A DNA stretch of 32,427 bases. Source: a virus. The notes below the pieces were generated by a model. That model was not told the DNA's origin and did no database searches. It saw only the letters and a program-made list of their open reading frames with translations. Shown here piece by piece: positions 4,919 through 31,506 of the stretch. Positions within the stretch are counted from its first letter, which is position 1. Each line of letters opens with the position of its first letter. The DNA is taken from positions 1 through 32,427 of IMG/VR virus record IMGVR_UViG_3300000298_000020; one strand, 5' to 3'. The position numbers and the translations under genes are program-made.

Positions 4919-5633
4919 TGCTCTCCTCCGCTGCTTTCGCCGCAGCCTTGCGTTTTTTGACAATTATCTTTTCCACATCCTCCGAAGTGAGCTGTTCAAC
5001 GGTCTTTTTCAGGTACGTTGCCACCTGCTCCGGCTTGACGTTAAATGCGTCCAACTCTTTCAACTGTTCTGCCGTAGGCGGATTAGGCTTGTCCGCATTT
5101 GGCTGTTCTTCGCTCTCCTGCTCTTTGAACTCTTCAGCCTCACTGTCGCTGTATATGCCCGAATACGCCAGCTTGCAGAGCTTGAGCACTACTCTGTCGA
5201 ACAGCCTTTTAAACCCCATAGCGTAAGGATATTCGTTTTTGCAGTTCTTTGCGGACACCTCGCCCACCTCGTACAGCCCTTGAGCGGGGTTGCTGTAGGT
5301 AAACACCAGGCTGTCCTTATATCCGGACTTGTCCACGCTTACGCATTCTGGCATGAATTTTCGCTTTTCATCTGCGGCGTCGTTAATCTTAAGGCACCCG
5401 TTGTGCGAGATGATTAAGCCGGAGTAATTCATCTTCGTGCCGGCAGCGTTCTTATTCATCAAAATCCAAAAATCTTCTTCGCCTACAATGCCGTGCTCTT
5501 TGATGAATTTGACAGCCACGTCCCTTGACTGTCTGTACCTTGCCGACAGTACGACAGGCAGCTCCTGCCCCGTTTTTGAGTCATACTCTTTTAATTTCTC
5601 ATTAAACATTTTTTCTTTCTCCTTCAACTTCAT
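4893..5633 (-). CDS. Putative single-strand annealing / recombination protein (family uncertain)
   Basis: Position immediately upstream of the exonuclease. YPYAMGFKRLFDRVVLKL segment with an acidic C-terminal half. Alternative start at 5609 has a GAAGGAG RBS. ATG 5633 overlaps the upstream stop as ATGA. Confidence 0.35.
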   Translation of the reverse strand: MKLKEKEKMFNEKLKEYDSKTGQELPVVLSARYRQSRDVAVKFIKEHGIVGEEDFWILMNKNAAGTKMNYSGLIISHNGCLKINDAADEKRKFMPECVSVDKSGYKDSLVFTYSNPAQGLYEVGEVSAKNCKNEYPYAMGFKRLFDRVVLKLCKLAYSGIYSDSEAEEFKEQESEEQPNADKPNPPTAEQLKELDAFNVKPEQVATYLKKTVEQLTSEDVEKIIVKKRKAAAKAAEESNGSKIQGE

Positions 5634-5773
5634 TCGTCAACTTGCCTATGTTTTATAAAATCCCACATCATTTGTAATATAAGGGCATTCATTGATATCC
5701 CCATTTCTTTCGCGGTCTTAACGAAATACGTTTTTACTTCTTCCGGCGCACGAATTAAGATTTTCTCGGTCAA
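5630..5773 (-). CDS. Small ribbon-helix-helix (Arc/CopG-like) protein, 47 aa, absent from the ORF track
   Basis: TTG at 5773 lies 8 nt after AGGAGG. Translation is TEKILIRAPEEVKTYFVKTAKEMGISMNALILQMMWDFIKHRQVDE. This gives the beta-strand plus two-helix RHH pattern. Its TGA overlaps the next ATG. Confidence 0.6.
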   Translation of the reverse strand: MTEKILIRAPEEVKTYFVKTAKEMGISMNALILQMMWDFIKHRQVDE

Positions 5774-5792
5774 TATTTTCACCTCCTTTATA

Positions 5793-5847
5793 GCGGTTAC
5801 CACCTGTCAACACTGTTATAATAACATGGCGGTTACCACCTGTCAAC
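5793..5847. promoter_or_regulatory. Two identical 19-bp direct repeats GCGGTTACCACCTGTCAAC (candidate operators)
   Basis: Copies at 5793-5811 and 5829-5847, 36 bp start to start. Each carries TTGACA on the minus strand. Confidence 0.6.
5818..5846 (-). promoter_or_regulatory. Leftward sigma-70-type promoter (TTGACA-17-TATTAT) for the recombination/replication operon
   Basis: Minus-strand TTGACA at 5846-5841, a 17-nt spacer, then TATTAT at 5823-5818. The -35 lies inside repeat copy 2. Copy 1 covers the predicted start region. Confidence 0.55.
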
Positions 5848-5921
5848 TATTTGATAGCAGTTTTTTTGTTAGCACTGTGTTATCATATAGTTAATTTATT
5901 GCCACACAAGGAGTTAATATC

Positions 5922-6113
5922 ATGGGTAAACATCTTTTTCCCCAACGCGGTCTGCGCATTGACGACGAGCTTTATCTCAAACTTCGCAAGCTGGCAGCTG
6001 ACGAAAATCGCTCTTTCAACAACTACGTCTACACACTATTGCAGCGTTTTGTTGCCGATTATGAAACCGCCAACGGTGTTATTGATGTCGATACTGACGT
6101 GCTTTATGAATAA
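5922..6113 (+). CDS. Ribbon-helix-helix (Arc/CopG-like) DNA-binding protein, antisense to the early operon
   Basis: AAGGAG lies 8 nt upstream of the ATG. RGLRIDDELYLKLRKLAADENRSFNNYVYTLLQRFV fits the RHH fold pattern. Confidence 0.6.
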   Translation: MGKHLFPQRGLRIDDELYLKLRKLAADENRSFNNYVYTLLQRFVADYETANGVIDVDTDVLYE

Positions 6114-6228
6114 GTATCAGTACATACTCGTTAAAGCTGACTCCATATCTGACAGCTTCGGTCATTAGCTGTTCCTTTAATTCTGACGGTAGCCGTAGGC
6201 TTACCGTTTCTTTTTGTGCTTTTATCAT
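6079..6228 (-). CDS. Small ribbon-helix-helix protein, 49 aa, absent from the ORF track
   Basis: Translation is MIKAQKETVSLRLPSELKEQLMTEAVRYGVSFNEYVLILIHKARQYRHQ. Its ATG overlaps the stop of the upstream HTH gene (TAATG). Its 3-prime end overlaps the convergent plus-strand RHH gene by 35 nt. Confidence 0.5.
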   Translation of the reverse strand: MIKAQKETVSLRLPSELKEQLMTEAVRYGVSFNEYVLILIHKARQYRHQ

Positions 6229-6434
6229 TATTCCCCATAAAGTGCCGCCGTCAAATCCACGACCGTCGTCGGTGCGCCGAGTTCGGTCATGGCTGCTGCT
6301 ACTTTTTTTAATGTTTTCGCTGTTGGCGTATAATTAATGCCTAATTTTGATATCGCTTGAGTTGAAACGCCTAAATGTTGAGCTACTGTTTTTACCATCA
6401 GCCCACGACGTTTCAAATACTCGCACATTGTCAT
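6228..6434 (-). CDS. Cro-like helix-turn-helix regulator (68 aa)
   Basis: VKTVAQHLGVSTQAISKL is an HTH motif. It is the first gene downstream of the operator-controlled leftward promoter, with an AAGGAGG RBS. Confidence 0.65.
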   Translation of the reverse strand: MTMCEYLKRRGLMVKTVAQHLGVSTQAISKLGINYTPTAKTLKKVAAAMTELGAPTTVVDLTAALYGE

Positions 6435-6468
6435 GCTTTATCCTCCTTGTCTTATTACTTAATCAAGC

Positions 6469-6516
6469 ACCACACTCGTCTGTGGTTTATTCGATATTAC
6501 CACATTGTTCTGTGCT
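6469..6516. promoter_or_regulatory. Two palindromic operators ACCACA-N6-TGTGGT / ACCACA-N6-TGTGCT
   Basis: O1 at 6469-6486 is a perfect inverted repeat. O2 at 6499-6516 has one mismatch. Centres are 30 bp apart. Confidence 0.6.
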
Positions 6517-6522
6517 TGTCAA
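6494..6522 (-). promoter_or_regulatory. Early leftward promoter TTGACA-17-TAATAT
   Basis: Minus-strand TTGACA at 6522-6517 and TAATAT at 6499-6494. O2 occupies the spacer and O1 lies just downstream of the predicted start. Confidence 0.65.
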
Positions 6523-6541
6523 CTAATTTGGGCGCAAAAAG

Positions 6542-6569
6542 TTGAAGTTTTCTGTGTTTTTTTTATAAT
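6542..6569 (+). promoter_or_regulatory. Rightward promoter TTGAAG-16-TATAAT for the repressor/integrase genes
   Basis: TTGAAG at 6542-6547 and TATAAT at 6564-6569. Divergent from the early leftward promoter. Confidence 0.5.
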
Positions 6570-6591
6570 AGATTTTAGAGGTCGTCCACTT

Positions 6592-6951
6592 ATGAATCTA
6601 GATTTATGGAAGCAAAGAAAAAAGGAATTGCATTTAAATTATGGAGAAATAGCCAAATCAGCAGGGGTTTCGAAAAGAACTGTTGAGGATATTTTTCGAG
6701 GATTTACGCCAACCCCCCGCATAGACACCGTTCAAGCTATTGAAAAAGCACTTGGAATAACAGACAGCGGGTTGTGGACTGCCGAAGATTACTCCGACGG
6801 AGATATTTTCAGCTTAAAAAAAATAAGCGTCACCCCCATTGAGGATGAGCTGCTTTATAAATTTAAAGAAATCGGTAACTGCGTCGGCGAAAAAGGGCAA
6901 ACCCTTTTACTCGAATTTGCAGATATAATTTTAAATGTGTTAAAAAAATAA
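6592..6951 (+). CDS. cI-like XRE-family repressor (119 aa)
   Basis: LNYGEIAKSAGVSKRTVEDIF is an HTH motif. Divergent from the cro-like gene and upstream of the integrase. Start moved to ATG 6592, downstream of the promoter. No S24 peptidase domain seen. Confidence 0.65.
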   Translation: MNLDLWKQRKKELHLNYGEIAKSAGVSKRTVEDIFRGFTPTPRIDTVQAIEKALGITDSGLWTAEDYSDGDIFSLKKISVTPIEDELLYKFKEIGNCVGEKGQTLLLEFADIILNVLKK

Positions 6952-7048: not shown

Positions 7049-8197
7049 ATGACTACGGAAAAGCTGTTAAAAGAACTATTAGGCAAGCTCGAGGGGTTGG
7101 AAAAGCAAATTGGCACAAATTCTACCTCGCAAACACAAGATTGGGCAGAAAACAGGTTTTTGAAATTCACCGAAAAGGAGATTTTACAAATGCCTAAAAA
7201 AATCAGAATAGTAATCCGTGAATGCGACTGCACGGTTTACGCCCGAAAAAGAACAACAGGGAGGTATAAATGTTCATACGAAATTCAATTTAATAGAAAA
7301 GGTTACCATATTTCCGCATCTGGCAGAACAAAAGAAGAAGCAAAAGCGCGTTTTATCGCAAAAGCAAAGGCTCTTGATATTCAACAAGGGAACGGCGCCA
7401 TTTCTGTTCCAACGAACTTTGATAAATTTGCAAATTACTGGTTTGAAAATTTTCATAAACGCAAAGTTGGAGCGAATACGTTTGAGCACGACATAAAGCT
7501 TTACAAGAGGCACATAAAAGAGCGCTTCGCAAAGTTTCCAGTAAATTACATAAATGCTGCTATGCTTCAATCATTTTTAGATGATTTTTCAGACCGCCCC
7601 AAAACGACAAAAGACTTGTTTTCGCTGCTTAACCAAATATTAAATATGGCAGTCAAGCACGGATTGATAAGATTAAACCCTATAAGTATTTGCATCATCA
7701 AAAATTATGAACAAAATCACGGGTCGTTAATCGATAAAGACGAGGAGTATAAGCTTCTTAACACTTATAAGGGGACTGAATGGGAATTGCCGTTTGCTAT
7801 TGCTATTTATACCGGGCTGCGCCCTAATGAATACGCATCAGCGATTATTGAAAATGATTTTATTAAAGCAGTAAACAGCAAGCGGCATAACAGTAACGGC
7901 AAGATTGAATATAAATATATTCCCATTACGCCAATGCTTCGTCCGTATTTGAAAGGTATAAACGAGCTGCCTGCAACGCCTAACTTGCAGAATTTAACCC
8001 GGCGGCTTAAAAAAGTGCTTCCCAATCACAAATTATATGATTTGCGCACCACTTTTCAAACGCGTTGCACAGAGTGTGGAATTACTGACAGTGTTATCGG
8101 TGTATGGATGGGCAATTCCATAGGCAAATTAAAAGAAGCTTATACAGATTTTTCAAAAAGCTTTTTATTAAAAGAAGCGGAGAAATTTCTCTATTGA
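7049..8197 (+). CDS. int: Tyrosine recombinase / phage integrase
   Basis: YTGLRPNE (catalytic Arg region), LYDLRTTF (xxLR box), GVWMGN and KEAYTDF (candidate Tyr). AAGGAGG RBS. The attP-like region follows directly. Confidence 0.85.
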   Translation: MTTEKLLKELLGKLEGLEKQIGTNSTSQTQDWAENRFLKFTEKEILQMPKKIRIVIRECDCTVYARKRTTGRYKCSYEIQFNRKGYHISASGRTKEEAKARFIAKAKALDIQQGNGAISVPTNFDKFANYWFENFHKRKVGANTFEHDIKLYKRHIKERFAKFPVNYINAAMLQSFLDDFSDRPKTTKDLFSLLNQILNMAVKHGLIRLNPISICIIKNYEQNHGSLIDKDEEYKLLNTYKGTEWELPFAIAIYTGLRPNEYASAIIENDFIKAVNSKRHNSNGKIEYKYIPITPMLRPYLKGINELPATPNLQNLTRRLKKVLPNHKLYDLRTTFQTRCTECGITDSVIGVWMGNSIGKLKEAYTDFSKSFLLKEAEKFLY

Positions 8198-8462
8198 ATA
8201 CCCTAAAATACCCTATATTTTCAATAGCATGTTAATGTTCTAACATGCGAAAAGTGCCCCAAATAGGGCAAAAACAGTGATAAAACACCCAAATTTTCAT
8301 TATTTTACCCTATTTAGGAGCACAAATTTAGGTTCGAGTCCCATCATCTCCACCAAAAAATGAGGTAAAATCAGTGATTTTATCTCTTTTTTTATCGTTT
8401 TTTGCCCTATTTTCTAAAATTTAGGGTCAATATTTAAGATGTACCCTAAATGTACCCTAAAT
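8198..8462 (+). other. attP region with arm-type repeats
   Basis: CCCTA(A/T)(A/T)T-type motifs occur on both sides of the tRNA-like core. They include ATACCCTAAA 8198, ATACCCTATA 8208, TACCCTATTT 8306 and GCCCTATTTT 8404. There is an inverted copy at 8419-8427 and a tandem GTACCCTAAAT at 8441 and 8452. An 8-bp inverted repeat GCATGTTA/TAACATGC lies at 8227-8248. Confidence 0.65.
8331..8355 (+). other. tRNA 3-prime-end fragment (T-loop, acceptor 3-prime strand, CCA): probable attP core
   Basis: GGTTCGAGTCCCATCATCTCCACCA. No matching 5-prime acceptor strand or other arms are present upstream, so this is not a full tRNA gene. It is followed by a hairpin at 8363-8385 plus a T7 run at 8387-8393, which would replace the host tRNA terminator. 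Confidence 0.7.
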
Positions 8463-8494
8463 TTTTAAAACTTTCAAAAATCTGTTTCTGAACA

Positions 8495-8533
8495 AAAAAT
8501 TAAAACAAAGCCGCCCGATTTTAAGTCGGGCGG
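8495..8533 (-). terminator. Rho-independent terminator ending the late operon
   Basis: Stem CCGCCCGA (8511-8518) pairs with TCGGGCGG (8526-8533). On the minus strand it is followed by CTTTGTTTTAATTTTTT. Confidence 0.75.
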
Positions 8534-8558
8534 TTCTGCTGTGCATATATTTGTAATT

Positions 8559-9401
8559 TCAAGCAGCCTTTTCCTTTTCCAAAAATTTTTGGATGAAATC
8601 AAGGCGTCTTTTCATTTTGTCCTGCAACGTGTATTTTACGAAATTCGCACCGTCTGTCATTCCGGTAAACGCGCTTGAGGCAATTCTAAATAGTTTGGCA
8701 AGCGTGCTTACTATAACACCTAACCCAATCACTTGATTAGTGAAAAACAGTGTGCTGAACGCAAAGGACATGGCTACAATCATTGTTAATTTTTGTATAA
8801 CCATCTTGCTGATTGCCTTGCCCTCATTTCCGTACAAATCGTCATCGTCATTTGAATTAAGGTCTACGCCGCTGAATATCGTGCTTGTTTTTATCGGAAC
8901 ATATCTTATCCAGCGGCTGCCCACCTTTATATGTTTACCAGCGACTTTAAAACAATGTATATCACGGTCCGCCGTTTCAAGTTTTTCTGCCCAATACTTT
9001 TTTTTGTTAATCCGGGCAAACATCATACGTCTTTGAAGATAAGCAGTGTATGCAGATAACTTCTTCTCGTCGTTCCGCTGTTTTACATAATCCTCAAATT
9101 TCGTCATGAGGTCGTGCGAAACAAGCCCCTCATGTGCTCCCTTTATTTTTGCCTGAACCTCTTTAACATCCTGATTAGCGTTAATCTCCCTTTCACGCGA
9201 ATACGCTCTTGCGGATAAGGCTACAAATATGACGGATAAAACGGTAAGCCCCAATTCCACCCAATAAGACGTATCTTTAAAAACACTTGGGTCAAACCCT
9301 GCGTGCACATAATCCATCAATACCTCTGAGGCGGTAATGAATATTAAAAGGCATATCAGGAAGAATTGTTTTAAATTAAATTTAGATTTATCAATATTCA
9401 T
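8559..9401 (-). CDS. Membrane protein, 280 aa (2 TM, soluble region, 2 TM), unknown function
   Basis: Hydrophobic segments FFLICLLIFITASEVLM, WVELGLTVLSVIFVALSA, LTMIVAMSFAFSTLFF and VIGLGVIVSTLAKLF. AAGGTGG RBS. Last gene of the late operon. Confidence 0.6.
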   Translation of the reverse strand: MNIDKSKFNLKQFFLICLLIFITASEVLMDYVHAGFDPSVFKDTSYWVELGLTVLSVIFVALSARAYSREREINANQDVKEVQAKIKGAHEGLVSHDLMTKFEDYVKQRNDEKKLSAYTAYLQRRMMFARINKKKYWAEKLETADRDIHCFKVAGKHIKVGSRWIRYVPIKTSTIFSGVDLNSNDDDDLYGNEGKAISKMVIQKLTMIVAMSFAFSTLFFTNQVIGLGVIVSTLAKLFRIASSAFTGMTDGANFVKYTLQDKMKRRLDFIQKFLEKEKAA

Positions 9402-9411
9402 CTATGCCACC

Positions 9412-9903
9412 TTACCGTTTTGCAAAAACCTCGCGTGAGTATAGCACATTGAATACAATGCCTATACAGAAGCTGATACTAATCCATCCTAACGTTGCCG
9501 ACAGCTTTACTAATTGAGCCTCGAGCGCGTTAAACGCAGTCAAAGCGGCTATTAGGAATAATAGCGGCATAATGCTGTTCAGTACCGCCTCTATAGTCCG
9601 TATATTCTTTATTTCACGCTCTAAAGCTTTCAGCTCGGTCTTGTCCTGTTTTGTCTTTAAATCTGCAAGCATTATATTGCACTGCGATTTCATGTCTGAC
9701 AGCTTTCTGTCGACAAACAGCTTTTTAATAACCCAAAAAAGGAAAAGCAAAAGCAAAATTCCGGTTATTCCTATCTTAAATCCGACAGCAGCCTTTGTGT
9801 CCCCTATGTTGCTATATTGAATAATGACGAGGATGATAGGAATCACAGCCGAAAACAACGCGTGTAAAATAAAAAAGATTAATCTCTTTTTTGTTACTTT
9901 CAT
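9412..9903 (-). CDS. Membrane protein, 163 aa (about 4 TM), holin candidate by position only
   Basis: Segments LIFFILHALFSAVIPIILVIIQY, ITGILLLLFLFWVI, IMPLLFLIAALTAF and GWISISFCIGIVFNVLY. ATGA overlap with the upstream gene. Confidence 0.55.
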   Translation of the reverse strand: MKVTKKRLIFFILHALFSAVIPIILVIIQYSNIGDTKAAVGFKIGITGILLLLFLFWVIKKLFVDRKLSDMKSQCNIMLADLKTKQDKTELKALEREIKNIRTIEAVLNSIMPLLFLIAALTAFNALEAQLVKLSATLGWISISFCIGIVFNVLYSREVFAKR

Positions 9904-10412
9904 TTAAGCCCTCCGAAATTCACTGAGGCTTGCGCCGGAGCAGCTTCTTCCTCGACAGCTAACGGCTGCAATACTACCGTCATTACCTCGTCAGGCTCTT
10001 GCGGCTTGTATTCTCCTTCTAAGCCTTTTATCGCGTCCGCCAGCTCGGCTACTTCCTCTTTTGTCAAAGCCTTTAGTTTCGCTATTCCCTTGCCCATAGG
10101 CACAAGTAAGCTTTTTAATGAATTAGTAATTTTTTCTATCTTCTCCATACGTGCGTCTAATTCTTTTGTAAGCTTCTTCAATGACTTTTCCGTGACGGCA
10201 GTGACGTCAATATTAAGCGTTTTTCCGGCAAGCTTTTCCGAGACCTTTTGGCTCAGATTGTCCACGTTAAAAGTGGCGTCCAGCATTTTATTGTTTTTGT
10301 TTACCAATTTGCCGATTATAGCCCGTACAATCGTGTAGATTATAAGCCCCGCGCCACTGGCACCGCCGAGAGCTGCGACATATGGCGATATCAATTCCCA
10401 AACATAATCCAT
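9900..10412 (-). CDS. Single-pass membrane protein with long coiled-coil, 170 aa
   Basis: N-terminal SPYVAALGGASGAGLIIYTIVRAII, then a heptad-rich Lys/Glu/Leu region. AAGGAGA RBS. Confidence 0.55.
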   Translation of the reverse strand: MDYVWELISPYVAALGGASGAGLIIYTIVRAIIGKLVNKNNKMLDATFNVDNLSQKVSEKLAGKTLNIDVTAVTEKSLKKLTKELDARMEKIEKITNSLKSLLVPMGKGIAKLKALTKEEVAELADAIKGLEGEYKPQEPDEVMTVVLQPLAVEEEAAPAQASVNFGGLK

Positions 10413-10423
10413 TTTTCATCTCC

Positions 10424-11086
10424 TTAAACAAGTGTAGGGTCGTAGTTCTTTTCAATCGCGGTTATTCTTTCAGAAAGGTTGTTGATAACTCCGATTGCTT
10501 TGTTGTATGCGTTTATTAACCGCTCGTTTTCTTTTTTTAATTCAGTCATTTGCGCATTTTGTGCAGACTTGTGTTTGTCAAAATCGCCCAGCACACGGTT
10601 AAATTCTAACCACAAATCTTTTTCCGTCTTCTCTCTTTTGCTCTTGTCGGTCATTACGAGAGTTTGAGTTTCGGTAAATACTATATTCGCTTGGGCAATC
10701 TGCTTTTCTATTTCGGCAATTCTTTCAAATGCGCTTTTGTCGGTCATGCCGCCCGATACCTGCCACTGGTTTTGTCTTAAATGAAAATAGGCGGTCACTT
10801 TCAGCGGCTCGCACACCCAAGCATGGACAACAATTTCGTCATTTACTTCAGTCACTATAAGGCTGACATATTGCTCTTTATTAAGCAGTTCAGGGGGGAG
10901 TTTTACCCTCCCACCCTTTATTACCGATTTATACTCAATGTTGTCTTCGCCCCTAAAAAGAGCTATATATGCACCTTTTTGGGGCAATAAAAAAGACACC
11001 TCAAAAGTGTCCCTTATATCTAACATGATTGGAGTTCTGTCAATTAAAACTCCTTTTTCACTCCCCATTAAAAGTTCATATTTCAT
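10424..11086 (-). CDS. Hypothetical protein, 220 aa, fibre-associated by position
   Basis: ORF immediately downstream of the fibre gene cluster. The C-terminal half looks like a coiled coil. Confidence 0.5.
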   Translation of the reverse strand: MKYELLMGSEKGVLIDRTPIMLDIRDTFEVSFLLPQKGAYIALFRGEDNIEYKSVIKGGRVKLPPELLNKEQYVSLIVTEVNDEIVVHAWVCEPLKVTAYFHLRQNQWQVSGGMTDKSAFERIAEIEKQIAQANIVFTETQTLVMTDKSKREKTEKDLWLEFNRVLGDFDKHKSAQNAQMTELKKENERLINAYNKAIGVINNLSERITAIEKNYDPTLV

Positions 11087-11308
11087 TTAACTACCCTGCC
11101 TTTCTCTCGGCTTTCCCTCCAACTCTCGAATGTCACCATGAATGCGCCTAAATTCCGCTTTTTTCTCCTCTATATTCGGTATTTCAACGCCCGCCATGAC
11201 TTGCAGCAAATCTTCGTTTAACGAAGTGAGTTGTCTTTTAAGCTTTGAAATGTTTGTCTTTCTTTCAAATTCTTCCTTATTCTTTAAATATATAGGGTCT
11301 ATATTCAT
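11087..11308 (-). CDS. Hypothetical small coiled-coil protein (73 aa)
   Basis: ORF abutting the next gene (TAAATG). No motif recognised. Confidence 0.45.
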   Translation of the reverse strand: MNIDPIYLKNKEEFERKTNISKLKRQLTSLNEDLLQVMAGVEIPNIEEKKAEFRRIHGDIRELEGKPRERQGS

Positions 11309-11334
11309 TTTTCTGCTCCTTTATTTTTATTCTT

Positions 11335-12882
11335 TTATACTCTCGGAGAAAATCTCAGAGTGAAGCTGCATAATATGTCTTCGGTTATATTCGAATTAGA
11401 GTCTGCGACGTTCAATTCTGTATCACCAACAAAAGCAATGCGAGGGAGATTACTTGTTAATCCCGAACAATCCTTTAACAGCACATACTTGCCCGTGTAG
11501 CCTCCCACGTTTATATCTGTAGCCGATGTCAATGTCAAATCGAAATTATAATCACCACCATTATTCGTTGAATATACGTCAAAAATTGAGTCAACGTCAT
11601 TAAGAGAGTGGTTCATAAAGTCCAACATTGCGCCTATGTAATCAGCTGCTATGCCTCCGCCGCCGCTTATAGTCACTTGCCCTACTATTCTGTCTTCGTA
11701 GAATGTGTAGGAATTAACAATATAATTGCCTGAGCCGCCTCCCGCTATTGTTCCGTCTATTGCTCCAGTCAATGTGGTGATAAGTTTTCTTGTAGAATCA
11801 CCACCGCCGCCATCACCACCACCGCCGCCATCGTCTATGGTATCTGTCGTTATAATATCTCCGTTATCGCCTACGACAAGGAATTGCCCTGCTAATCCTG
11901 CCCCCAGATTTTTGTCCAGCTTGTTGGGGACATTGTTTATATTCACAATCTGTTGAGAGGATAAGGCGTCTTGCTTTTCCGATAATTCTTGTTCTACTTC
12001 ATATACCTGCGCCTCTGTCGCTATAGAAGTGCCGGAGTTCGTCGCCTTCGTCGTCTTGTTCGGAACAACCGGTGAGGTCGTGAATGTTTTCGTACCGCCT
12101 ATGGTCTGATTGCCCGAAGTCTGCACGGAGTTGACAATACGCGAATCGTTTCCTTGTGCAACCGTATCTGATGTAGTGCCGAAATTTTTATTAAACGCTG
12201 TATTTTTGTGAAAAGCAGGCTCTGCGCCTACGTCCTCCGCGCTTAGAATTACAGTCCCTGTCTTGCCGTTGACGCTGACTACCGCATCGGAATTTTTTAT
12301 ACTCTCCCAACCGCTGCCCGTTGACAACAGCCAGTCGCCAACGTTAAACGTTTCGCCTGCAAAAGTACCAGCCGTCTGCGTTATGTAATATATCCCCTCA
12401 TTGGCGGTGTAACCTGTTATAGGGGCGGTATCATTCGTCAGGGTAATCGTGTTTGTCGTTGCGCCTATTCGAGCTTTGGCGTCGTCAGTAAGCGTTGCGA
12501 CTGCCGTGTTCGCGTTCCATGTGCCGCCGTATAGCATTTGCCCGAGAATATGGTCGGGCAGCTGTGACGTGGGGACTTTCCCTGTACCGTCAAGCGACGC
12601 TATCCCGTTAGCTTGCCCTTTGCTGGCAAGAATTGAATTTATTGCCGCGACAAGGTTTGTTTTATCCGTTGTATCGAGGTTGTTGAGATTACCTATTAAA
12701 GATATCACCTCGCTTACGTCTCCCGACACGTAGGGCAAGCTCGACCAGTTATTTTCACCGTCTCCTATTTTGAATTTAATCTTACCATCGGTCGTCATTT
12801 CTACGCCCGGTCTGCCAAAATCCAAAACAATGTCATTTGCCGCCCACTCCGCCGTAGTGCCTCTTTTCAATAAAATTTTCAT
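11335..12882 (-). CDS. Tail fibre / receptor-binding protein with Mtd_N/HylP-like N-terminus
   Basis: LLKRGTTAEWAANDIVLDFGRPGVEMTTDGKIKFKIGDGENNWSSLPYV matches the KRGT..W....L..GE...E.DT...K.GDG...W..L.Y signature of phage fibre N-termini. Start moved to ATG 12882, preceded by AAGGAGA. Contains a GGGGGDGGGGD linker. Confidence 0.7.
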   Translation of the reverse strand: MKILLKRGTTAEWAANDIVLDFGRPGVEMTTDGKIKFKIGDGENNWSSLPYVSGDVSEVISLIGNLNNLDTTDKTNLVAAINSILASKGQANGIASLDGTGKVPTSQLPDHILGQMLYGGTWNANTAVATLTDDAKARIGATTNTITLTNDTAPITGYTANEGIYYITQTAGTFAGETFNVGDWLLSTGSGWESIKNSDAVVSVNGKTGTVILSAEDVGAEPAFHKNTAFNKNFGTTSDTVAQGNDSRIVNSVQTSGNQTIGGTKTFTTSPVVPNKTTKATNSGTSIATEAQVYEVEQELSEKQDALSSQQIVNINNVPNKLDKNLGAGLAGQFLVVGDNGDIITTDTIDDGGGGGDGGGGDSTRKLITTLTGAIDGTIAGGGSGNYIVNSYTFYEDRIVGQVTISGGGGIAADYIGAMLDFMNHSLNDVDSIFDVYSTNNGGDYNFDLTLTSATDINVGGYTGKYVLLKDCSGLTSNLPRIAFVGDTELNVADSNSNITEDILCSFTLRFSPRV

Positions 12883-12908
12883 ATATATTCTCCTTGAAAA
12901 TATTGTGT

Positions 12909-13484
12909 TTAATCTGCTGTTGACGGGAATCCGTCGTCTACTACGAAGTAAGTTTTCCTTAATTCGTCCACCGCTTCCCATAATTGCTCAATCGCTATGG
13001 TATTAGCATTTATCTGTGCCGCTTCTTGACTTTTTAAATCAACATCGATTTCCCCGTCTGTCTCTCCCCCCTCATCAACCGTTGTCCGATATAGATTTGT
13101 CGGCATACGGGCGGAAAGTAGTCCGGTTGAGGTTATTTCTGAATAATTTAAGAAAAACTCCAAATTGCCTACAATATCCGTAAACGGCTTGGGCAGCGGA
13201 CATTCAAATAAGAGATAATCATATCCGTCAAGCTTTACCGTTTCTACAAAAAGCAAGTTGTAAAATGTTGCTCCCGCCTGCTGTCTTTGTCCCCTGCTGT
13301 CGGTTATTACTGCTGCAACCGTACACAGCGGAGTTGACCCTGCGTCCCTGTTTTGCGTAACGGGGACGTAAGCTTGTAATCCTACGAATCTATAGCTTCC
13401 TTTGTATAAACGCGTGCTGTTAATAACCTGAGCTGTCCCGCTCACATCGAGTTTCAACGCAAGTTTTCGTAATTGTTGTTCCAT
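12909..13484 (-). CDS. Hypothetical tail-associated protein (191 aa)
   Basis: ORF between the 1201-aa protein and the fibre gene. Confidence 0.5.
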   Translation of the reverse strand: MEQQLRKLALKLDVSGTAQVINSTRLYKGSYRFVGLQAYVPVTQNRDAGSTPLCTVAAVITDSRGQRQQAGATFYNLLFVETVKLDGYDYLLFECPLPKPFTDIVGNLEFFLNYSEITSTGLLSARMPTNLYRTTVDEGGETDGEIDVDLKSQEAAQINANTIAIEQLWEAVDELRKTYFVVDDGFPSTAD

Positions 13485-13533: not shown

Positions 13534-16500
13534 TTATGGGTTTGTTGTATAAGTCACATTAACTTTTGAACGTCGATACTCCGACGGGCTGTCACTTGCG
13601 CTTGTCTGATTATGGAATCTATACCATTCATTTGTATCGGCTAGCTTGAGGCGTATATACAACACGTTATTCTGTATGAAATTAACAACGGCGGAGACAT
13701 TTTCGGCGTCGTCGTTAAATCGGTATCCCTCCATGCTGACGTCTATAAGTTCTATTATCTCAATGCCGTCCAGCGGCGTTCCAGCTAATGGAATACTGAT
13801 ATATTCCAGCTGTTCTGCTTCGCTTGGAGCAGGAGGACGAGAGCTGCCATAAGGCGGAGGCGCAACCTGCATTTGAAAACTGGTAACGTCAAAAACAATA
13901 CCTGTATACGGAAATGTCACCGTCTCCTCTACAGGGTCAGTCGGTAAGCCGCCGCTAGCGCCGTCTATAAATTCTGGATAAATCCACCAGCTTTGAAGCT
14001 TGTCTACGTCCGCCAGCTTAGAAACGTTCTTAACAATGTAGGCATACCTGCTGCCCTGTTGGTTTTCCTGATACAATGCTATTGCCTGTACTTGACTTAG
14101 GTCTAGTCCATCGGGTGGCGTAATTCTCAACTCGATTGCTTCCTGTCCGTCGTCAAGCAAGTCGTAAACGACGTTGTCGGCAACTACGTTTGCGCCTGAA
14201 AGGTTTATGTTTTCATTGAACAAGCTTTGAGGTTCACTTAGCAACAGCATTTTAAGCTCGCTTTCTTTCTGTCCGAAAAGATTTGGAAAGGTTATAAAAT
14301 CCTCAACATCAGCTTCGCTTGCCTTATGCAAAAAGTTTATCTGATAATTGAAAGATATTGCTTCCCGCGCGTCCTTGTCCAACGCAATTCCAACGTTATC
14401 GTTACCCCCGCCGGCAACCGTCTGCCTGACCGTCGGCTTATCTGTTCCCATTATTGCCGTTTGTGCTTCTTCAAACGTCCAATCTGTCTTATTGAACAGC
14501 CTGAACTCGAATAAGTCTGCGCGTCCCATCACGTCGCAATATCTGAGCGGCTGCATAGATAAATATGACGCGTCGGCTGTATCGTCGGGCAGAGGCGTTA
14601 ATTTCCCCGTTTCAAGCAAACTGTTTACCGCGTCTATAATCTCGTTTATTGTGGAGTTGTCTCCATTCGGCACCTGTCCCTCGACTGGCGTATCTACGAA
14701 GTCACCCGCCTTGAAATTGTCTGCCATGTCCCACTCAAATATGATTCCGTCGTGCGTTGGAAAATGTAGTAAAGGCACTGTGCAGTCCGAGTGATCGCTG
14801 GGGTCTTTAGGGTGTATTTCGTTGGGGTCTGTTCTATCGATTAAACTGGACGGAAATAGCTGATTGTTTGGAATCACAAAGCCAGAAGCATTGGTATGTA
14901 ATCGCAATTTATCCGCTTTGAAACGTGTCCATGCGTAATTGGGTAGAACTGGCGGGTTGTTCGGGTCGTCCGGTTTATTAAACACAAGCCACTTTATAAA
15001 ATTACGCCAATAAAGAGGACTTAAAAAGCGCGGCGGCTTTGCTTCCGTGTTTCTCTGCGTGGATAATGTGAAAAAGTCCATTAAACGCACCTCGCGTCTT
15101 ATTTTCGACCTCTCACTTACCTCATAAAAGCGCGGCTCACTTGGTATAGTCACTATGTTTGCCAGCTGGTTGAAATTCTTGCTGTATGTGACCTTTTGAA
15201 AAATAGCGTCGGGATAGCATTCGTTTTCCGTTTCAGTAACATAATAAGCCTCTCCGTTTATCGTGACCATGTCGCCGCTTTCTTTTTCGTTTTCGGGCAT
15301 TGCATATTCTTGTCGCTGGTAAATTCCGTTCCCGACGCGGATGAGCTTGCCAAATAGATTTTGCGAAAACCTTTCACTGTCCACAATCTTATCCTGCTGC
15401 CCGAAAAACTGCTCATGGTGCGGATATTTCTCAAAAGTAGAATTTCGCACAAATGCCGCAAAATCCGGGCGGAATTGAGTAAAGCGCACAGTATCCTGTG
15501 TGTGGAATTTGACATGAAACATAAGGTTGTTGAATTTTATGTTGTCTATATTTCCTATGTCAGTGCCCTGCCACACAAGTTGCAATATGCGTTTTAAAGC
15601 CATAATCTGATCGCCGCTATTTACTCCCGGCGGCACAAAATTAAGCCCCTGTATCTTATTGTCGCCCAAAACGTAGTACAATGCCGCTCCCTTTGACGGA
15701 TATACGTCGTAAGGATTTGCATTGCTTAAAATGTCGTATATGGACTTTTCAAACACCATATCCAACGCCGAGCGCGTGTCCCAGTTCCCATCAGGGAGCT
15801 GCAGGGAGATATCAAACTCCTCAATTGCAAGCACGGAATAAGAAAGCTGTATCTCCGCAGTATTGTTGCTTATTAAAAACGACGGGTCACTCGTTTTTGC
15901 GACTACCCACTCGTCTACGATATTTTGGGGGCTGAATAAATTCGTGACGTAGCTTTCGTATTGCGTAAAGTATTCCGACAAATTCCGGCTGTTGAATACC
16001 GTTATTTTGCCGCTATTATCCGTTTTTGTACGCGTCCCGCCAAGCTGTCTGAATTTTAAAATAAACCTGTCAGTCTCGTCGTCCGCAAACTCCAAATACG
16101 GTATCGCATGTATGTAATAGCCGATTTGTAGCAAGACTTCCCATAGATTTTTTTGCTCGAATATTGTTTCATGCGCAATAGCTGTTTTAAGGCGGTTGTT
16201 CCATTCGTTATCCACGATTATGGCGTGTTCCAGCGACGGCTGGGTATTTCCCATGCTTCCGAACTCGTCAAGACTTTGAACGCGGTTGTCCAAAATGTGA
16301 GTATCCAAAGTGAGCAATGCTTTTCTCAGCAAATTGTAGCAGGAATATTTCTCGCCCGAAGCTATTAGCGGTCCGCCTATCGTAGTAACCGACATGTCTT
16401 TGTATTCAAACGACGTTGTTATTCTGACCGTTGACGAGTCAACTACGGGCGTTGCGCTTGTATATATGTCCCACCAGTAATACGTAACCGTTCCTATTAA

Positions 16501-17139
16501 AACAGGAATAATTTCACTTCCTCCTGTCATAGTCGCCTCGTAATACTCCAACATTGTATTAGCATTTACAGGATTAGCAGCGCAAGTTATTGTAAATCTG
16601 TATCCCTTGCCTGCCTCTATTTCCGCCGCTGTAAGAGCAGGGATGTTCAGCGTTATTGTTTTTGAATTTATACCCTGCTGCACCTGCGCCAATGCCAAAC
16701 CGGTAGTGTAATAATCCGACCAATCGCCTGCTTCGCTTGTAGTTTTATCCGCGTAACTTCTGCGTGAACTTTTAATCCTCCTCAAATAAGCCGTTCCATT
16801 ATTGGCATAATATACGGCGTTATCTGCGTTGGGAATTGACGTAGGTCCGCTGTAAAAAACTGCATATTCAATTTCCGTGCCCGGTACGTCTACGTATGGT
16901 CCGTCCCAATTCTCGCCGAACTCTGTCCTGTGTGTTTCTATACGACGCACTGTCGTCTTGACGTTCATTTCAAAGAGATTTTGAAATTGCGTTCCCGTTG
17001 ACGTGGCGGCTTTGCAATATAACGTAGGAGTTGTGAACGTAATAGTTAGCGGGACTGCCGCGTTCTGAACTGCCAAAAGATTAGATATCTCTTCCGTATT
17101 ACTCCATTCGTATTGATAGTTGTTTTTAAAGATTGGCAT
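13534..17139 (-). CDS. Large virion/tail structural protein (1201 aa)
   Basis: Longest ORF in the window, located in the tail module. No catalytic motif recognised by eye. Confidence 0.6.
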   Translation of the reverse strand: MPIFKNNYQYEWSNTEEISNLLAVQNAAVPLTITFTTPTLYCKAATSTGTQFQNLFEMNVKTTVRRIETHRTEFGENWDGPYVDVPGTEIEYAVFYSGPTSIPNADNAVYYANNGTAYLRRIKSSRRSYADKTTSEAGDWSDYYTTGLALAQVQQGINSKTITLNIPALTAAEIEAGKGYRFTITCAANPVNANTMLEYYEATMTGGSEIIPVLIGTVTYYWWDIYTSATPVVDSSTVRITTSFEYKDMSVTTIGGPLIASGEKYSCYNLLRKALLTLDTHILDNRVQSLDEFGSMGNTQPSLEHAIIVDNEWNNRLKTAIAHETIFEQKNLWEVLLQIGYYIHAIPYLEFADDETDRFILKFRQLGGTRTKTDNSGKITVFNSRNLSEYFTQYESYVTNLFSPQNIVDEWVVAKTSDPSFLISNNTAEIQLSYSVLAIEEFDISLQLPDGNWDTRSALDMVFEKSIYDILSNANPYDVYPSKGAALYYVLGDNKIQGLNFVPPGVNSGDQIMALKRILQLVWQGTDIGNIDNIKFNNLMFHVKFHTQDTVRFTQFRPDFAAFVRNSTFEKYPHHEQFFGQQDKIVDSERFSQNLFGKLIRVGNGIYQRQEYAMPENEKESGDMVTINGEAYYVTETENECYPDAIFQKVTYSKNFNQLANIVTIPSEPRFYEVSERSKIRREVRLMDFFTLSTQRNTEAKPPRFLSPLYWRNFIKWLVFNKPDDPNNPPVLPNYAWTRFKADKLRLHTNASGFVIPNNQLFPSSLIDRTDPNEIHPKDPSDHSDCTVPLLHFPTHDGIIFEWDMADNFKAGDFVDTPVEGQVPNGDNSTINEIIDAVNSLLETGKLTPLPDDTADASYLSMQPLRYCDVMGRADLFEFRLFNKTDWTFEEAQTAIMGTDKPTVRQTVAGGGNDNVGIALDKDAREAISFNYQINFLHKASEADVEDFITFPNLFGQKESELKMLLLSEPQSLFNENINLSGANVVADNVVYDLLDDGQEAIELRITPPDGLDLSQVQAIALYQENQQGSRYAYIVKNVSKLADVDKLQSWWIYPEFIDGASGGLPTDPVEETVTFPYTGIVFDVTSFQMQVAPPPYGSSRPPAPSEAEQLEYISIPLAGTPLDGIEIIELIDVSMEGYRFNDDAENVSAVVNFIQNNVLYIRLKLADTNEWYRFHNQTSASDSPSEYRRSKVNVTYTTNP

Positions 17140-17216: not shown

Positions 17217-17738
17217 ATGAAAAAAATAACCAAAAAGCAAATCGCGCTAATTCTCATGATGATTATTTGCGCGCTACTTTTTTTATTTTTTTTTGTAATA
17301 GGAATTATTGGTTTGGTCAATTTTTTCAAAAATAACGGAAAAATATCCGAACCAATAATTATCAGACAAATATTTGTGTATTTGTATTTTTGTTTGTTGT
17401 TCGGTTTAATAATTTGGCTTGCCGTTTTGTCTTTCAAAAATAATGTACTTTACTCTTATAAAAGACGAATCACCTTAATTGTTCTTGTACTTACTTGTGC
17501 AATTTTTCTTATTATAAGCATTTGGCACATGACTGATAACTTAATACACCAAACTATTCCTGCCTTAAAAGAACTTAAACAGAATTACCCAAACAATCCC
17601 CTAATAACCGAAATCAAAAAAACAATTTCTATCAACATTTGTTATCAAGTAATTCTCTTTATTTTTTATAGTTTCTTTTTATTATTATCAATACCCTTCA
17701 TGCGTAAGCTAAACGATAATTCCACCGCTACCATATAA
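17217..17738 (+). CDS. AT-rich, opposite-strand membrane protein (173 aa, about 4 TM): moron
   Basis: Only plus-strand gene inside the late region. Visibly lower GC than its flanks. Has its own promoter. Its 3-prime end overlaps the end of the convergent gene 17709-18227 by 30 nt. Confidence 0.7.
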   Translation: MKKITKKQIALILMMIICALLFLFFFVIGIIGLVNFFKNNGKISEPIIIRQIFVYLYFCLLFGLIIWLAVLSFKNNVLYSYKRRITLIVLVLTCAIFLIISIWHMTDNLIHQTIPALKELKQNYPNNPLITEIKKTISINICYQVILFIFYSFFLLLSIPFMRKLNDNSTATI

Positions 17739-18227
17739 AGGATATTTAAAGTCTTCCGACAACCTTTCGGCAGAAGAAGATCCCGCAGGCGGTGAAATAG
17801 ATACGTCGGCTATCTTGTCGCTGCTTTGCGTGGTTTTGTAGTTGAGGGAAACGTCCTTTAATTCGTATGTCAGCGCTATATTATCTACGTGCATGCCCTG
17901 CGCAACCACGCTTGCCTCTATCAGATAAATCCTGTGGCAGCATATTTCTGCCATGCCGACGTATTCCTCTACGTCGTCATGTTCTACGACAAAATCCCAC
18001 TTGCGAGGCGTATCTGAATAATCCGCTGTAATATACCGCTCCAGCCTGAATTTTGTTTTTGGCTGAAAAGCATTTCGCGTAGAAATAGGCATGCCCTCAA
18101 GGATAATCTCGCCGGTGTCCATTGTCTCGTCTAATCTGTCCTCGATATAAACCGGCGCGACCAAATATTTCGTATATTCTGTTGACTTAACTCCGTTCTC
18201 CCATAAAAATACTCTCCAATAATACAT
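17709..18227 (-). CDS. Hypothetical tail protein (172 aa)
   Basis: ORF in the tail module, immediately upstream (in transcription order) of the moron and the 1201-aa gene. Confidence 0.5.
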   Translation of the reverse strand: MYYWRVFLWENGVKSTEYTKYLVAPVYIEDRLDETMDTGEIILEGMPISTRNAFQPKTKFRLERYITADYSDTPRKWDFVVEHDDVEEYVGMAEICCHRIYLIEASVVAQGMHVDNIALTYELKDVSLNYKTTQSSDKIADVSISPPAGSSSAERLSEDFKYPLYGSGGIIV

Positions 18228-21743: not shown

Positions 21744-21819
21744 TTGGCTGCCCCTGTCCGATTTGAACGAACACACTCCGGGTCAAAGCCGGTTGCCCTA
21801 CCCTGTTAGGCTAAGGGGC
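21744..21819 (-). tRNA. tRNA-Gln (anticodon UUG), 76 nt, CCA encoded
   Basis: Manual fold of the minus strand. Acceptor TGCCCCT/AGGGGCA (7 bp, U1-A72), then U8 A9. D arm GCCT-AACAGGGTA-GGGC. Anticodon arm ACCGG-CTTTGAC-CCGGA (U33, TTG, A37; one A-A mismatch at 27-43). Variable loop GTGT. T arm GTTCG-TTCAAAT-CGGAC. Discriminator G, then CCA. Confidence 0.88.
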
Positions 21820-21825
21820 AATAAA

Positions 21826-27589: not shown

Positions 27590-28135
27590 TTAAATCTCGT
27601 TATCTCTTTTTAACGCCGTACCGTCCACGATTACAGGGTCTTTCTCGGATATTTCGGGTTTGCGCTTGGATTTGTCTCCGAAAGTGATGTTTATTTTCGT
27701 TTCCTCACTTGCGCCGAGATTTAATTTCTCAGGTGCTTTGTAGCCTAAAATTTCGCTTGCAGTTTTAATCGCGCTTACGGCTACGCTGCGGGCTTTGGAG
27801 TCCAGACTCTCCATTACGATCTTGCCCTTAGACGTCACTTTTACCGGAGCATCCCTGCACTCGTCGGCAATACGTTTTAAATCCCGAATCATGTCCGCTT
27901 TCTCCCAAATGACCTTGACGCAAAGCTCTGTCTTCAATTCTTTACACCTTGAGTGTACCTTGATATTGTTTAACAGCCGACTGGCAATTTCATCAATGCT
28001 CTTGTCAGTCTTATTTCCTCGCCCATATGCAGTGATATACGCTTGACGTTGACTTTTTCCCTCTATCGCATAAGCACGGCAAAAGGCTTCCTGTTTAGGC
28101 GTCAATTTGTTTTTCTCATTCATACTTTTTCCCAT
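27590..28135 (-). CDS. terS: Terminase small subunit
   Basis: LTPKQEAFCRAYAIEGKSQRQAYITAYG ... ASRLLNNIKV matches the terminase small subunit N-terminal HTH signature. Alternative start at 28123. Confidence 0.8.
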   Translation of the reverse strand: MGKSMNEKNKLTPKQEAFCRAYAIEGKSQRQAYITAYGRGNKTDKSIDEIASRLLNNIKVHSRCKELKTELCVKVIWEKADMIRDLKRIADECRDAPVKVTSKGKIVMESLDSKARSVAVSAIKTASEILGYKAPEKLNLGASEETKINITFGDKSKRKPEISEKDPVIVDGTALKRDNEI

Positions 28136-29738: not shown

Positions 29739-30426
29739 TTATCGGACAAACATCCTCAGCTGTCCGCTTGACTCTTCCCCTTTTAAGCGATTACAGGCAA
29801 TCCTATACCACTCCTTGTTTTTCTCAAAACCTATGTAGCTACGTCCATTTTTTATGGCGGCAACTGCCGTTGTTCCGCTACCTATGAACGGGTCTAATAT
29901 AATGTCACCCGGTTGCGAGGCGTGGAGTATGTGACGTTCTACAAACTCTAACGGCTTTATTGTGGGGTGAGAATATTTCTCCTTATCCGCTTTATTTATT
30001 GAACTGTTGTACCATTTGCTTTTTAACTCATATCCGTTATTTAAATTTACTCCCGAATCTCTGAAATGCAGACATATTTCAATATCTTCCAAATACCGTT
30101 GATTGCAAGTCGGAATAGGATTATTTTTCGTCCACACAAGCAACGTGTAGTTATAATTTTTAAAAAAATTTAAAACATCCCGCATTTGCAAACGACTGCA
30201 CCAGATGAATATATTTGTTTTTTTGCATACTCGAATAAAATCGTGGAATATAGAATAAGCAATACCATTACTTATTTCTTTTAGCGACTCTTCCATTTTC
30301 TTCGACGGAAACTCCACCTTGCATATACAGATATGGAATATCTGTGTATATCATGTCTACGCTTTTATCCGGGATTTCCTTAATAAGTTCAAAAGCATCG
30401 CCCAAAAGTATTTTATTTAATAGCAT
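29739..30426 (-). pseudogene. Beta-class N6-adenine/N4-cytosine DNA methyltransferase with a +1 frame break
   Basis: The N-terminal frame carries SVDMIYTDIPY, a DPPY-type motif IV. The second frame carries HPTIKPLEFVERHI and DPFIGSGTTAVAA (motif I). The frames meet near 30306-30315 (QGGVS / FPSKKMEE), and one extra nucleotide is required. Confidence 0.75.
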
Positions 30427-30497
30427 AGTATCTCTATTTTTTCTCCCTGTTTTATTCTTTGCCGTTTTAGTATTTGAAAATTCGTAAACAAACCTCG

Positions 30498-30743
30498 TCA
30501 ATCTATCCCGTCGCAATGTCTATATTTTTCAAACATACATTCCTTAGCATACTTGACGCTGTTTCTGTCATATTCTTCGGACGTGCAGGGCAATTTCGTA
30601 TACGGGTCTTCCTTAAGCCCATACCTTTCTATCATTTCGTCGAAAAATTCTCTTGGGACGCATATGCCGCTGAAAATTAAATTTTCCAAAAAATCAACCG
30701 CAATCCTTTGTTCCTTTTCCGTTAATGTTGTTTTGCGCTTCAT
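30498..30743 (-). CDS. Hypothetical protein (81 aa)
   Basis: ORF between repeat-protein paralog 1 and the N6/N4-MTase. Confidence 0.45.
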   Translation of the reverse strand: MKRKTTLTEKEQRIAVDFLENLIFSGICVPREFFDEMIERYGLKEDPYTKLPCTSEEYDRNSVKYAKECMFEKYRHCDGID

Positions 30744-31289: not shown

Positions 31290-31506
31290 CTTTTTTCTCC
31301 TCTTTCTTCGGCGGCTTGCAACCGTCCTCACACTCTCTTATTTCGGGGTATTCGCGAGGAATGTAGCAGTCATACCGGGATACCAGCTCCTCGCGCATAC
31401 ACACGCAATAATCTTCGCAGGTTACCAAATCGGCGCAGTCCTCGCAAAAAACAACGTCATTTCGCAACAGACAATCGACGTTGCAACTCTCACAGTAATT
31501 TTTCAT
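31267..31506 (-). CDS. Cys-rich acidic small protein (79 aa, 12 Cys)
   Basis: Translation begins MKNYCESCNVDCLLRNDVVFCEDCADLVTCEDYCVCMRE. No family recognised. Confidence 0.5.
   Translation of the reverse strand: MKNYCESCNVDCLLRNDVVFCEDCADLVTCEDYCVCMREELVSRYDCYIPREYPEIRECEDGCKPPKKEEKKDEIQTHR

Follow-up and report, generated by a model that had tools for sequence, protein, structure and literature searches.

How a temperate phage opens the wall of its host when its genome holds no recognisable endolysin is the question raised by the last three late genes of the 32,427-nt stretch of virus DNA analysed here, IMG/VR record IMGVR_UViG_3300000298_000020 (the whole stretch is called the window below). 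These genes encode membrane proteins of 170, 163 and 280 amino acids (aa), hereafter the trio. A reading made from the letters alone (the sequence-only reading) had noted that Firmicutes-type phages keep holin and endolysin at this place, and had offered as explanations a muralytic enzyme of unrecognised type, lysis by another route, or a superinfection-exclusion or defence module. Our analysis showed that the three protein families are absent from Pfam, PHROGs, PADLOC, PDB and GenBank phages, and that in the relatives examined, too, no lysin was recognised by Pfam. We tentatively favour, at a little under an even chance, the reading that the trio is a new holin-like lysis module and that the wall is broken by host autolysins or by an unrecognised enzyme. 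All that is said here on the function of the trio is what we infer.

Pfam searches were run on about 50 open reading frames (ORFs) of the window and PHROGs searches on 30 of them. No amidase, lysozyme or other glycoside hydrolase, CHAP/NlpC, M23/M15 or transglycosylase domain and no wall-binding domain (LysM, SH3) was found at E<=0.1, and no holin family was matched. The only lysis-labelled rows were phrog_12609 (E 0.19) and phrog_2083 (E 0.019), both non-significant coiled-coil noise. With no peptidoglycan-hydrolase family in either set of profiles, the earlier statement that the genome has no recognisable endolysin was borne out. A spanin was also looked for: the 170-aa protein combines a transmembrane (TM) segment with a coiled coil, the latter predicted to be cytoplasmic, and no lipobox ORF of the o-spanin-like kind was found on reading the window translations. 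Stop-codon recoding that hides genes was rejected, as the late ORFs are intact under table 11 and the sole phage tRNA is an ordinary tRNA-Gln(UUG). A wall-less host was rejected as an explanation too, given the standard code, the Christensenellales hosts and the peptidoglycan wall with LL-diaminopimelic acid (LL-DAP) reported for Christensenella. A literature search on endolysin-less tailed phages and on lysis by Christensenellales phages gave nothing relevant.

These results leave room for a conventional holin-endolysin system, in which the trio would be holins and a divergent muralytic enzyme would be hidden among the unannotated late proteins (candidates of 159, 185, 133, 171, 330, 186, 172, 191, 73, 128 or 192 aa), but we consider this quite doubtful. 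About a dozen late ORFs are without any family and were covered by sequence profiles, and most of the small unannotated late proteins were covered at the level of sequence profiles only, not of fold; divergent phages often carry unrecognisable enzymes, and the portal, 280-aa and 163-aa proteins of the window have no relative among GenBank phages. However, the Pfam lysin models are broad and still gave nothing even at E<=0.1-1, and the same absence was seen in all relatives scanned. The unannotated proteins also have no signal peptide or TM segment for export: among the proteins of the late strand, only those of the trio and a 186-aa Gly-zipper protein of the tail region are membrane proteins, and neither feature was found in the late proteins outside this set. 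The 280-aa and 1201-aa proteins, the two candidates named by the sequence-only reading, failed at fold level. The AlphaFold2 (AF2) model of the 1201-aa protein (residues 1-1200, 42 sequences) had a mean predicted local distance difference test (pLDDT) of 67, which means moderate confidence; it was beta-rich and showed no lysozyme, amidase or peptidase fold, its best Foldseek match being a weak one to the lambda tail-tip protein 8k35_A (E 5e-3). Its profile gave an empty result against PDB sequences, and a Pfam domain was present in 0 of the 120 homologues listed among the 235 found. On the basis of this model, the protein would most simply be a tail hub or tip protein, and the suggestion of a muralytic domain in it was not supported.

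For the trio, the reading as a holin-like module begins with gene structure and topology. The three ORFs were found at the sizes given above, all on the minus strand, and their translational coupling was evident from an ATGA overlap at the 170/163 junction and from remaining gaps of 11 nt (TAAggagatgaaaaATG) and 10 nt (TAAggtggcatagATG), with a GGAG or GGTGG ribosome-binding site in each. Hydropathy analysis returned the topologies that had been proposed, namely one TM segment plus coiled coil, four TM segments, and 2TM-soluble-2TM, and for the 280-aa protein the AF2 model agreed. The 170-aa protein has an acidic N-terminus, a weak Gly/Ala-rich TM segment (about 7-37), a Lys-rich flank, a long coiled coil, an acidic stretch and the C-terminal VNFGGL; LAGKTLNIDVTAVTEK and this VNFGGL are invariant in alignment A10, and the positive-inside rule predicts an N-out/C-in orientation. 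In the 163-aa protein, the most conserved member of the trio, the four TM segments form two hairpins with hydropathy peaks up to 2.8, and a charged helical loop of about 40 residues (about 64-103) between them is predicted inside, as are both termini by the same rule. The 280-aa protein has TM hairpins at 13-33/46-66 and about 201-245, a helical central domain of about 130 residues (about 67-200), in which an NxxRKxxAY motif is conserved and an acidic loop is disordered, and at the C-terminus a helix that is charged and amphipathic; its N-terminus, central domain and C-terminal helix are all predicted inside by the positive-inside rule. Thus all sizeable soluble parts of the trio are predicted to face the cytoplasm.

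For the 280-aa protein, AF2 modelling on a 39-sequence alignment (pLDDT 71, moderate confidence) gave a pair of TM hairpins, a long hairpin or bundle of helices, a beta hairpin with four-residue strands, a disordered acidic loop and a long C-terminal helix. Foldseek gave no match for it in the PDB (best E 0.17), and in BFVD it returned only four uncharacterised phage proteins of 293-307 aa (probability 1.00, E 1e-6 to 3e-3). PDB profile searches with the 280-, 163- and 170-aa families were also without a match, and none of the three proteins belongs to a Pfam, PHROG or PADLOC family. Since the soluble domain of the 280-aa protein is helical, is predicted to face the cytoplasm and has no PDB fold or profile match, it is not a plausible muralytic enzyme as far as the model can tell, and the proposal that such an enzyme resides there is unsupported.

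The window is the complete, circularly closed genome of a temperate phage, because the same 18-nt tandem repeat (CGCCGAAGCTACACCTCT and variants) occurs at both ends (1-60 and 32250-32427) and one repeat-protein ORF reads across the circular junction. Near-identical copies were found, some of them integrated as prophages and others in the form of contigs of 31-37 kb. On the minus strand, the late operon extends from terS (27590-28135) down to 8559 and contains genes for TerL, the portal, a scaffold-like acidic protein, a 419-aa capsid protein, small proteins, the 1201-aa protein and fibre proteins. The portal matches the T7-type Head-tail_con family of Pfam, and since no tape-measure gene is present in the window, the virion is probably podovirus-like. 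The trio stands just before the late terminator and attP, as had been stated. The terminator stem has 8 pairs, 7 of them GC, followed by CTTTGTTTTA, and folds with a free energy of -21.6 kcal/mol (z -3.5). The attP is real, because the integrated copies L001 and L003 have 100% identity to the window over 19401 to 8331 and this identity stops at 8331, within the 3' end of a host tRNA gene. A cI-like repressor gene on the plus strand also lies beyond terminator and attP. Rfam searches of 8000-11500 returned nothing credible.

A position adjacent to attP is the classical site of morons, and the trio might be a superinfection-exclusion or anti-phage defence moron expressed from the prophage, which we regard as very improbable. 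The GC content of the trio region is slightly lower (36-42% versus 44-48%), and multi-TM proteins with cytoplasmic partners recall RexAB-type systems; lambda RexA/RexB also combine a four-TM protein of about 150 aa with other components in a temperate phage and near the attachment site (att). Unlike RexA/RexB, however, the trio belongs to the late operon and is not co-transcribed with a repressor: no convincing promoter of its own was found, and it is linked to the late genes by junctions that overlap or span 10-11 nt. PADLOC was empty for the 280-, 163- and 220-aa proteins (the last is encoded just upstream of the trio) and gave only coiled-coil noise for the 170-aa protein (E>=0.0036). The gene order is kept in more than 10 lineages, in some of which it is not next to att, and among the Christensenellales-group relatives the 163-aa protein retains 62-82% identity, whereas true morons in these phages are variable and lie on the opposite strand, e.g., window 17217-17738. 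The defence module of the sequence-only reading is therefore disfavoured.

The families of the trio are large. For the 280-aa protein 81 close relatives were found, and an exhaustive hidden Markov model (HMM) search gave 168 clusters at 50% identity, nearly all of 280-350 aa and all unnamed; one 90%-identity cluster had 1521 members. When 70 diverse members were compared with PHROGs there was no match, and no usable result came from tblastn against INPHARED (GenBank phages), for which the queries were the portal, 280-aa and 163-aa proteins of the window together with three distant members of the 280 family. For the 163-aa protein, 126 homologues with 62-82% identity were found, all unnamed; a single-protein search with it returned no relative. 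According to the genome records, the hosts are Christensenella and Christensenellaceae metagenome-assembled genomes (MAGs), Clostridia MAGs and the cultured Anaerocaecibacter muris CLA-AA-M11, which is placed in GTDB family CAG-552, proposed as Pumilibacteraceae. This cultured strain carries a related prophage (NZ_CALPCE010000006.1, about 56-77 kb), so the question of how these phages lyse their hosts is open to bench work.

Comparison of the relatives showed where the module is found and what accompanies it. The relatives of the Christensenellales group (L005-L025) have the genes in the order 220-like, 170-like, 163-like and 280-like. With these the late genes end, and beyond them lies a gene for a tyrosine integrase, a DDE (rve) integrase or a serine recombinase. 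The architecture and order of the trio were also found in the distant L029, L033, L034, L035, L036, L038, L053 and L054, whose tail genes are unrelated; these equivalents were checked by hydropathy, iterative HMM and hhalign. Remote homology of the 163-aa protein to the L034 and L038 equivalents was detected by HMM and by hhalign (probability 95%, with a distant-equivalents profile headed by L034), and the architecture of the 170-aa protein recurs in the positional equivalents of L029, L033-L036, L038, L053 and L054. In relatives both close and distant, the gene just upstream of the trio is nearly always a homologue of the 220-aa gene. The module ends the late or structural block after the tail and fibre genes in the window, L005-L007, L008-L025, L029, L033, L036 (where three more unannotated genes stand between module and replication genes), L038, L053 and L054. 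The lysis-cassette position claimed for the trio thus holds in most relatives, but not in L027, where a trio of the same architecture follows the portal gene directly, or in L037, where a 280-family homologue with the topology unchanged (phmmer E 8e-9) stands alone between TerL and portal. In L034 and L035 same-strand Q/N-rich proteins follow the module, and in L034 also a protein of more than 3147 aa; these Q/N-rich proteins were considered as homologues of the window 186-aa protein and rejected, being not homologous. Judged by all these contexts, including L034/L035, L027 and L037, the module is always late but not tied to the att-proximal end.

The L027-type phage (L050, L027, L052) provided a second contig of 37,984 bp, which was read over its full length. 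Its head and tail genes share 40-71% identity with those of the window. The trio proteins there have 194 aa (TM and coiled coil), 201 aa (four TM) and 337 aa (2TM-soluble-2TM); the link of the 337-aa protein to the 280 family is weak, as phmmer matched it to two distant members at E 1.6e-5 and 4.5e-5 and hhalign gave a probability of 36%. The late operon ends with a fibre gene, the variable protein of a diversity-generating retroelement, a reverse transcriptase and an rve integrase, and no lysis cassette was found after the fibre genes, the contig being partly profile-scanned and the L052 third read by eye only. Across more than 15 contexts there was no precomputed Pfam lysin within 7-10 kb of the module, and Pfam scans of 65 plus 89 further ORFs of relatives without window homologues gave no peptidoglycan hydrolase. 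An ordinary lysin located elsewhere in homologous phages, which the sequence-only reading had named as evidence against its claim, was thus not found by Pfam in the relatives examined, and in the contexts seen a canonical cassette never co-occurs with the trio. One papain-fold match, PF15644 Gln_amidase (E ~4e-12), was seen in relatives. Its source was inferred to be a 294-aa ORF after TerL (L027 4168-5052, L047 11482-12366) without a homologue in the window. It was rejected as a relocated lysin, since it has a head-module or polyvalent-protein position and is not of a lysin family; it is probably a head-associated or polyvalent effector.

Some of these positions are what would be expected if the trio were a late membrane complex with a role other than lysis, such as a membrane anchor or platform on which capsids are assembled or DNA is packaged, a genome-delivery channel, or a block to the entry of DNA into a cell that is already infected. 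We rate this as possible, though rather unlikely. The L027 trio lies between portal and connector genes, the 280-family gene of L037 has TerL and portal as neighbours, and virion-type genes surround the module in L034 and L035. Coiled coils as large as these, on the cytoplasmic side, would suit the docking of other proteins, and the conservation of the trio is above what is usual for holins, as its size is unusual. Three consecutive late genes in a podovirus-like genome without a tape-measure gene, and with a portal that matches the T7 Head-tail_con family, also recall the membrane-active ejection-protein triplets T7 gp14/gp15/gp16 and P22 gp7/gp20/gp16, and like them the trio lies among structural genes in some relatives. 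In contrast to the T7 and P22 proteins, however, the trio are classical integral membrane proteins and unlikely to be soluble cargo. Their N-terminal TM hairpins are strongly hydrophobic (Kyte-Doolittle up to 2.8), and packaging into virions is unlikely because such segments should insert co-translationally into the membrane of the producing cell. No sequence or fold similarity to ejection proteins and no similarity to known assembly proteins was found, the sole PHROG row (phrog_2083, E 0.019) being noise. This reading also leaves the genome without any lysis gene, which is harder to explain.

We return to the holin-like lysis module, for which the following course of events may be proposed. 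The late transcript ends with the trio genes, whose translation is coupled, and each of the proteins begins with a TM segment, so each is expected in the membrane of the producing cell. There the trio would form a late-expressed complex of the cytoplasmic membrane with a permeabilising or timing role. The 163-aa and 280-aa proteins may oligomerise through their TM hairpins, and the cytoplasmic coiled coil of the 170-aa protein, possibly also that of the 220-aa protein, may regulate or time this oligomerisation. When a critical level is reached, the membrane would be permeabilised and the proton-motive force would collapse, and the wall would then be breached without a canonical phage endolysin. 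Host autolysins could be de-repressed by the membrane de-energisation, as is known in Bacillus and pneumococcus; other options would be inhibition of a conserved step of wall synthesis, or an unrecognised phage activity.

Several observations speak for this proposal. Neither the window genome nor the second contig offers any candidate other than the trio for the membrane step of lysis, and the hosts, being Christensenellales, are walled. The hydrophilic, charged C-terminal helix of the 280-aa protein may be counted, by analogy, as a holin-like trait. As holins, the 163-aa protein with its four TM segments and the 280-aa protein with this helix fit loosely, while their sizes and large cytoplasmic domains are atypical. 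Other points weigh against a lysis role. The trio has no sequence or fold link to a known holin family in Pfam, PHROGs or PDB; with 280 aa and cytoplasmic domains of about 130 aa it exceeds typical holins in size and in conservation, the 163-aa protein being 62-82% identical where tail genes are only 26-62% identical; and the module is not always terminal (L034/L035, L027, L037). There is also no wall-degrading step to point to. Of the options left by the sequence-only reading, lysis by another route remains the best one and is strengthened because the relatives examined, including the second contig with its last third checked by eye, also lack recognisable lysins.

Known systems give partial parallels for this. 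In Firmicutes holin/antiholin cassettes (PBSX xhlA-xhlB-xlyA, SPP1 two-holin) and in T4 T/RI/RIII several late membrane proteins are likewise encoded together. Like the Firmicutes cassettes, the trio usually stands after the tail-fibre genes and before attP, and in common with both systems it has charged C-termini, small multi-TM proteins and one bitopic protein whose soluble domain is large; a partner that is soluble and cytoplasmic, as RIII is in T4, is possible. However, no endolysin gene lies near or far and no Pfam or PHROG holin family is matched, and the trio is much larger (280 aa), has helical cytoplasmic domains of about 130 aa, is far more conserved and is variable in position. Amurins (phiX174 E, Qbeta A2, Sgl proteins, acting against MraY/MurA/MurJ) also bring about lysis without a phage muralytic enzyme, by means of small membrane proteins with conserved envelope targets, and a conserved host target of this kind would fit the high conservation of the 163-aa protein. 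But amurins are single short proteins of single-stranded DNA (ssDNA) or RNA (ssRNA) phages, whereas the trio consists of three larger proteins of a tailed double-stranded DNA (dsDNA) phage, and no similarity was detected. Outside wall-less hosts and the tiny ssDNA/ssRNA phages, lysis without a phage peptidoglycan hydrolase has so far not been known to occur. The far-reaching version of our proposal, which we hold to be unlikely, is that such an enzyme is dispensed with by a whole and widespread clade of tailed dsDNA phages that infect walled gut Clostridia (Christensenellales and relatives), and that a dedicated three-protein membrane machine with a soluble coiled-coil partner triggers autolysins or blocks a conserved step of wall synthesis. 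If the trio is a lysis device and no endolysin exists, this would be a sizeable natural exception to the holin-endolysin rule for tailed phages of walled hosts, and would mean a new and directly testable killing route for Gram-positive anaerobes, by autolysin triggering or wall-synthesis inhibition. Even as just a new holin family or a late membrane complex, the trio defines three unannotated protein families that mark a large group of uncultured gut phages.

Table 1 Features of the trio region and related elements in the window
Feature	Position	Strand	Basis or remarks
280-aa membrane protein	8559-9401	-	alignment A1, AF2 model
163-aa integral membrane protein	9412-9903	-	hydropathy
170-aa bitopic membrane protein	9900-10412	-	hydropathy, alignment A10
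220-aa soluble protein	10424-11086	-	N-terminal beta domain, C-terminal coiled coil ending LEKNYDPT
Intrinsic terminator ending the late operon	8511-8533	-	GC-rich hairpin and U-tract
attP core, 25 nt	8331-8355		equals 3' end of host tRNA gene (TGGTGGAGATGATGGGACTCGAACC on minus strand)
Tyrosine integrase	7049-8197	+	adjoins attP core
tRNA-Gln(UUG)	21745-21820	-	in late operon, between 77-aa capsid-associated gene and 159-aa gene

The 220-aa neighbour has no Pfam, PHROG or PADLOC family, and its profile gave coiled-coil matches only in the PDB, e.g., short tail fiber 9cuy_c (E 1e-3) and reovirus sigma-1. It could be either a partner in the cytoplasm or the final fibre-like component.

In the close relatives (L005-L025), the place immediately behind the 280-family gene is taken by one of three unrelated integration enzymes: a tyrosine integrase in L024, as in the window, a 530-aa serine recombinase in L016, and in most relatives a DDE rve-type integrase/transposase of 335-346 aa. 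The rve-type phages L005, L006 and L007 have phage genes in common and different host flanks, which suggests that insertion is transposition-like.

In the tail region, a low-GC (about 35%) gene on the plus strand (17217-17738) encodes a 173-aa four-TM protein and separates the late genes of the 172-aa (17709-18227, -) and 1201-aa (13534-17139, -) proteins. Since the 172-aa sequence is the N-terminus of the large protein in most relatives (A6 consensus), a moron appears to have split the tail gene in the window. Different opposite-strand genes (185-244 aa) adjoin the large tail gene in relatives, between its two parts in L027 and just downstream of it in most others. Further along, the 548-aa fibre ORF (11335-12981) as listed overlaps the 191-aa gene at 12909-12981; its true start lies downstream, because the gene calls of identical contigs give a 515-aa product. 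It had a sub-threshold Mtd_N match (E 0.0013, 19 bits against a 26.3-bit cutoff). The 191-aa sequence corresponds in relatives to the N-terminal anchor domain of fibre proteins that are far larger, at 418-2182 aa. Reverse transcriptase genes (RVT_1, matched by 6 of the 65 ORFs scanned) stand beside the fibre genes in L008, L014, L018, L020 and L023 (about 5300-6600) and in L052 (3394-4449), so these relatives carry a diversity-generating retroelement; no reverse transcriptase is present in the window genome.

The repeat at the window ends codes on the minus strand for a CSFGE/K hexapeptide-repeat protein, and a second repeat protein (MAMHGS/MAMQRS) is encoded at 30969-31331; N- or C-terminal parts of both match PHROGs 5070, 7964 and 20532, all of function unknown. 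Genes for DNA modification were also found. The C5 cytosine DNA methylase gene (476-1397, -) has a single in-frame TGA at 999-1001 (...RYFK*ILADLAALGY...), which could mean a pseudogene, a sequencing error or read-through; in the near-identical phage L002 the methylase is intact with 331 aa. The N4/N6 DNA methylase (29739-30516, -) is apparently split into ORFs of 82 aa and 192 aa, and a Mom-like DNA-modification protein is encoded at 31503-31865 (-) and matches phrog_1384 (E 4e-22).

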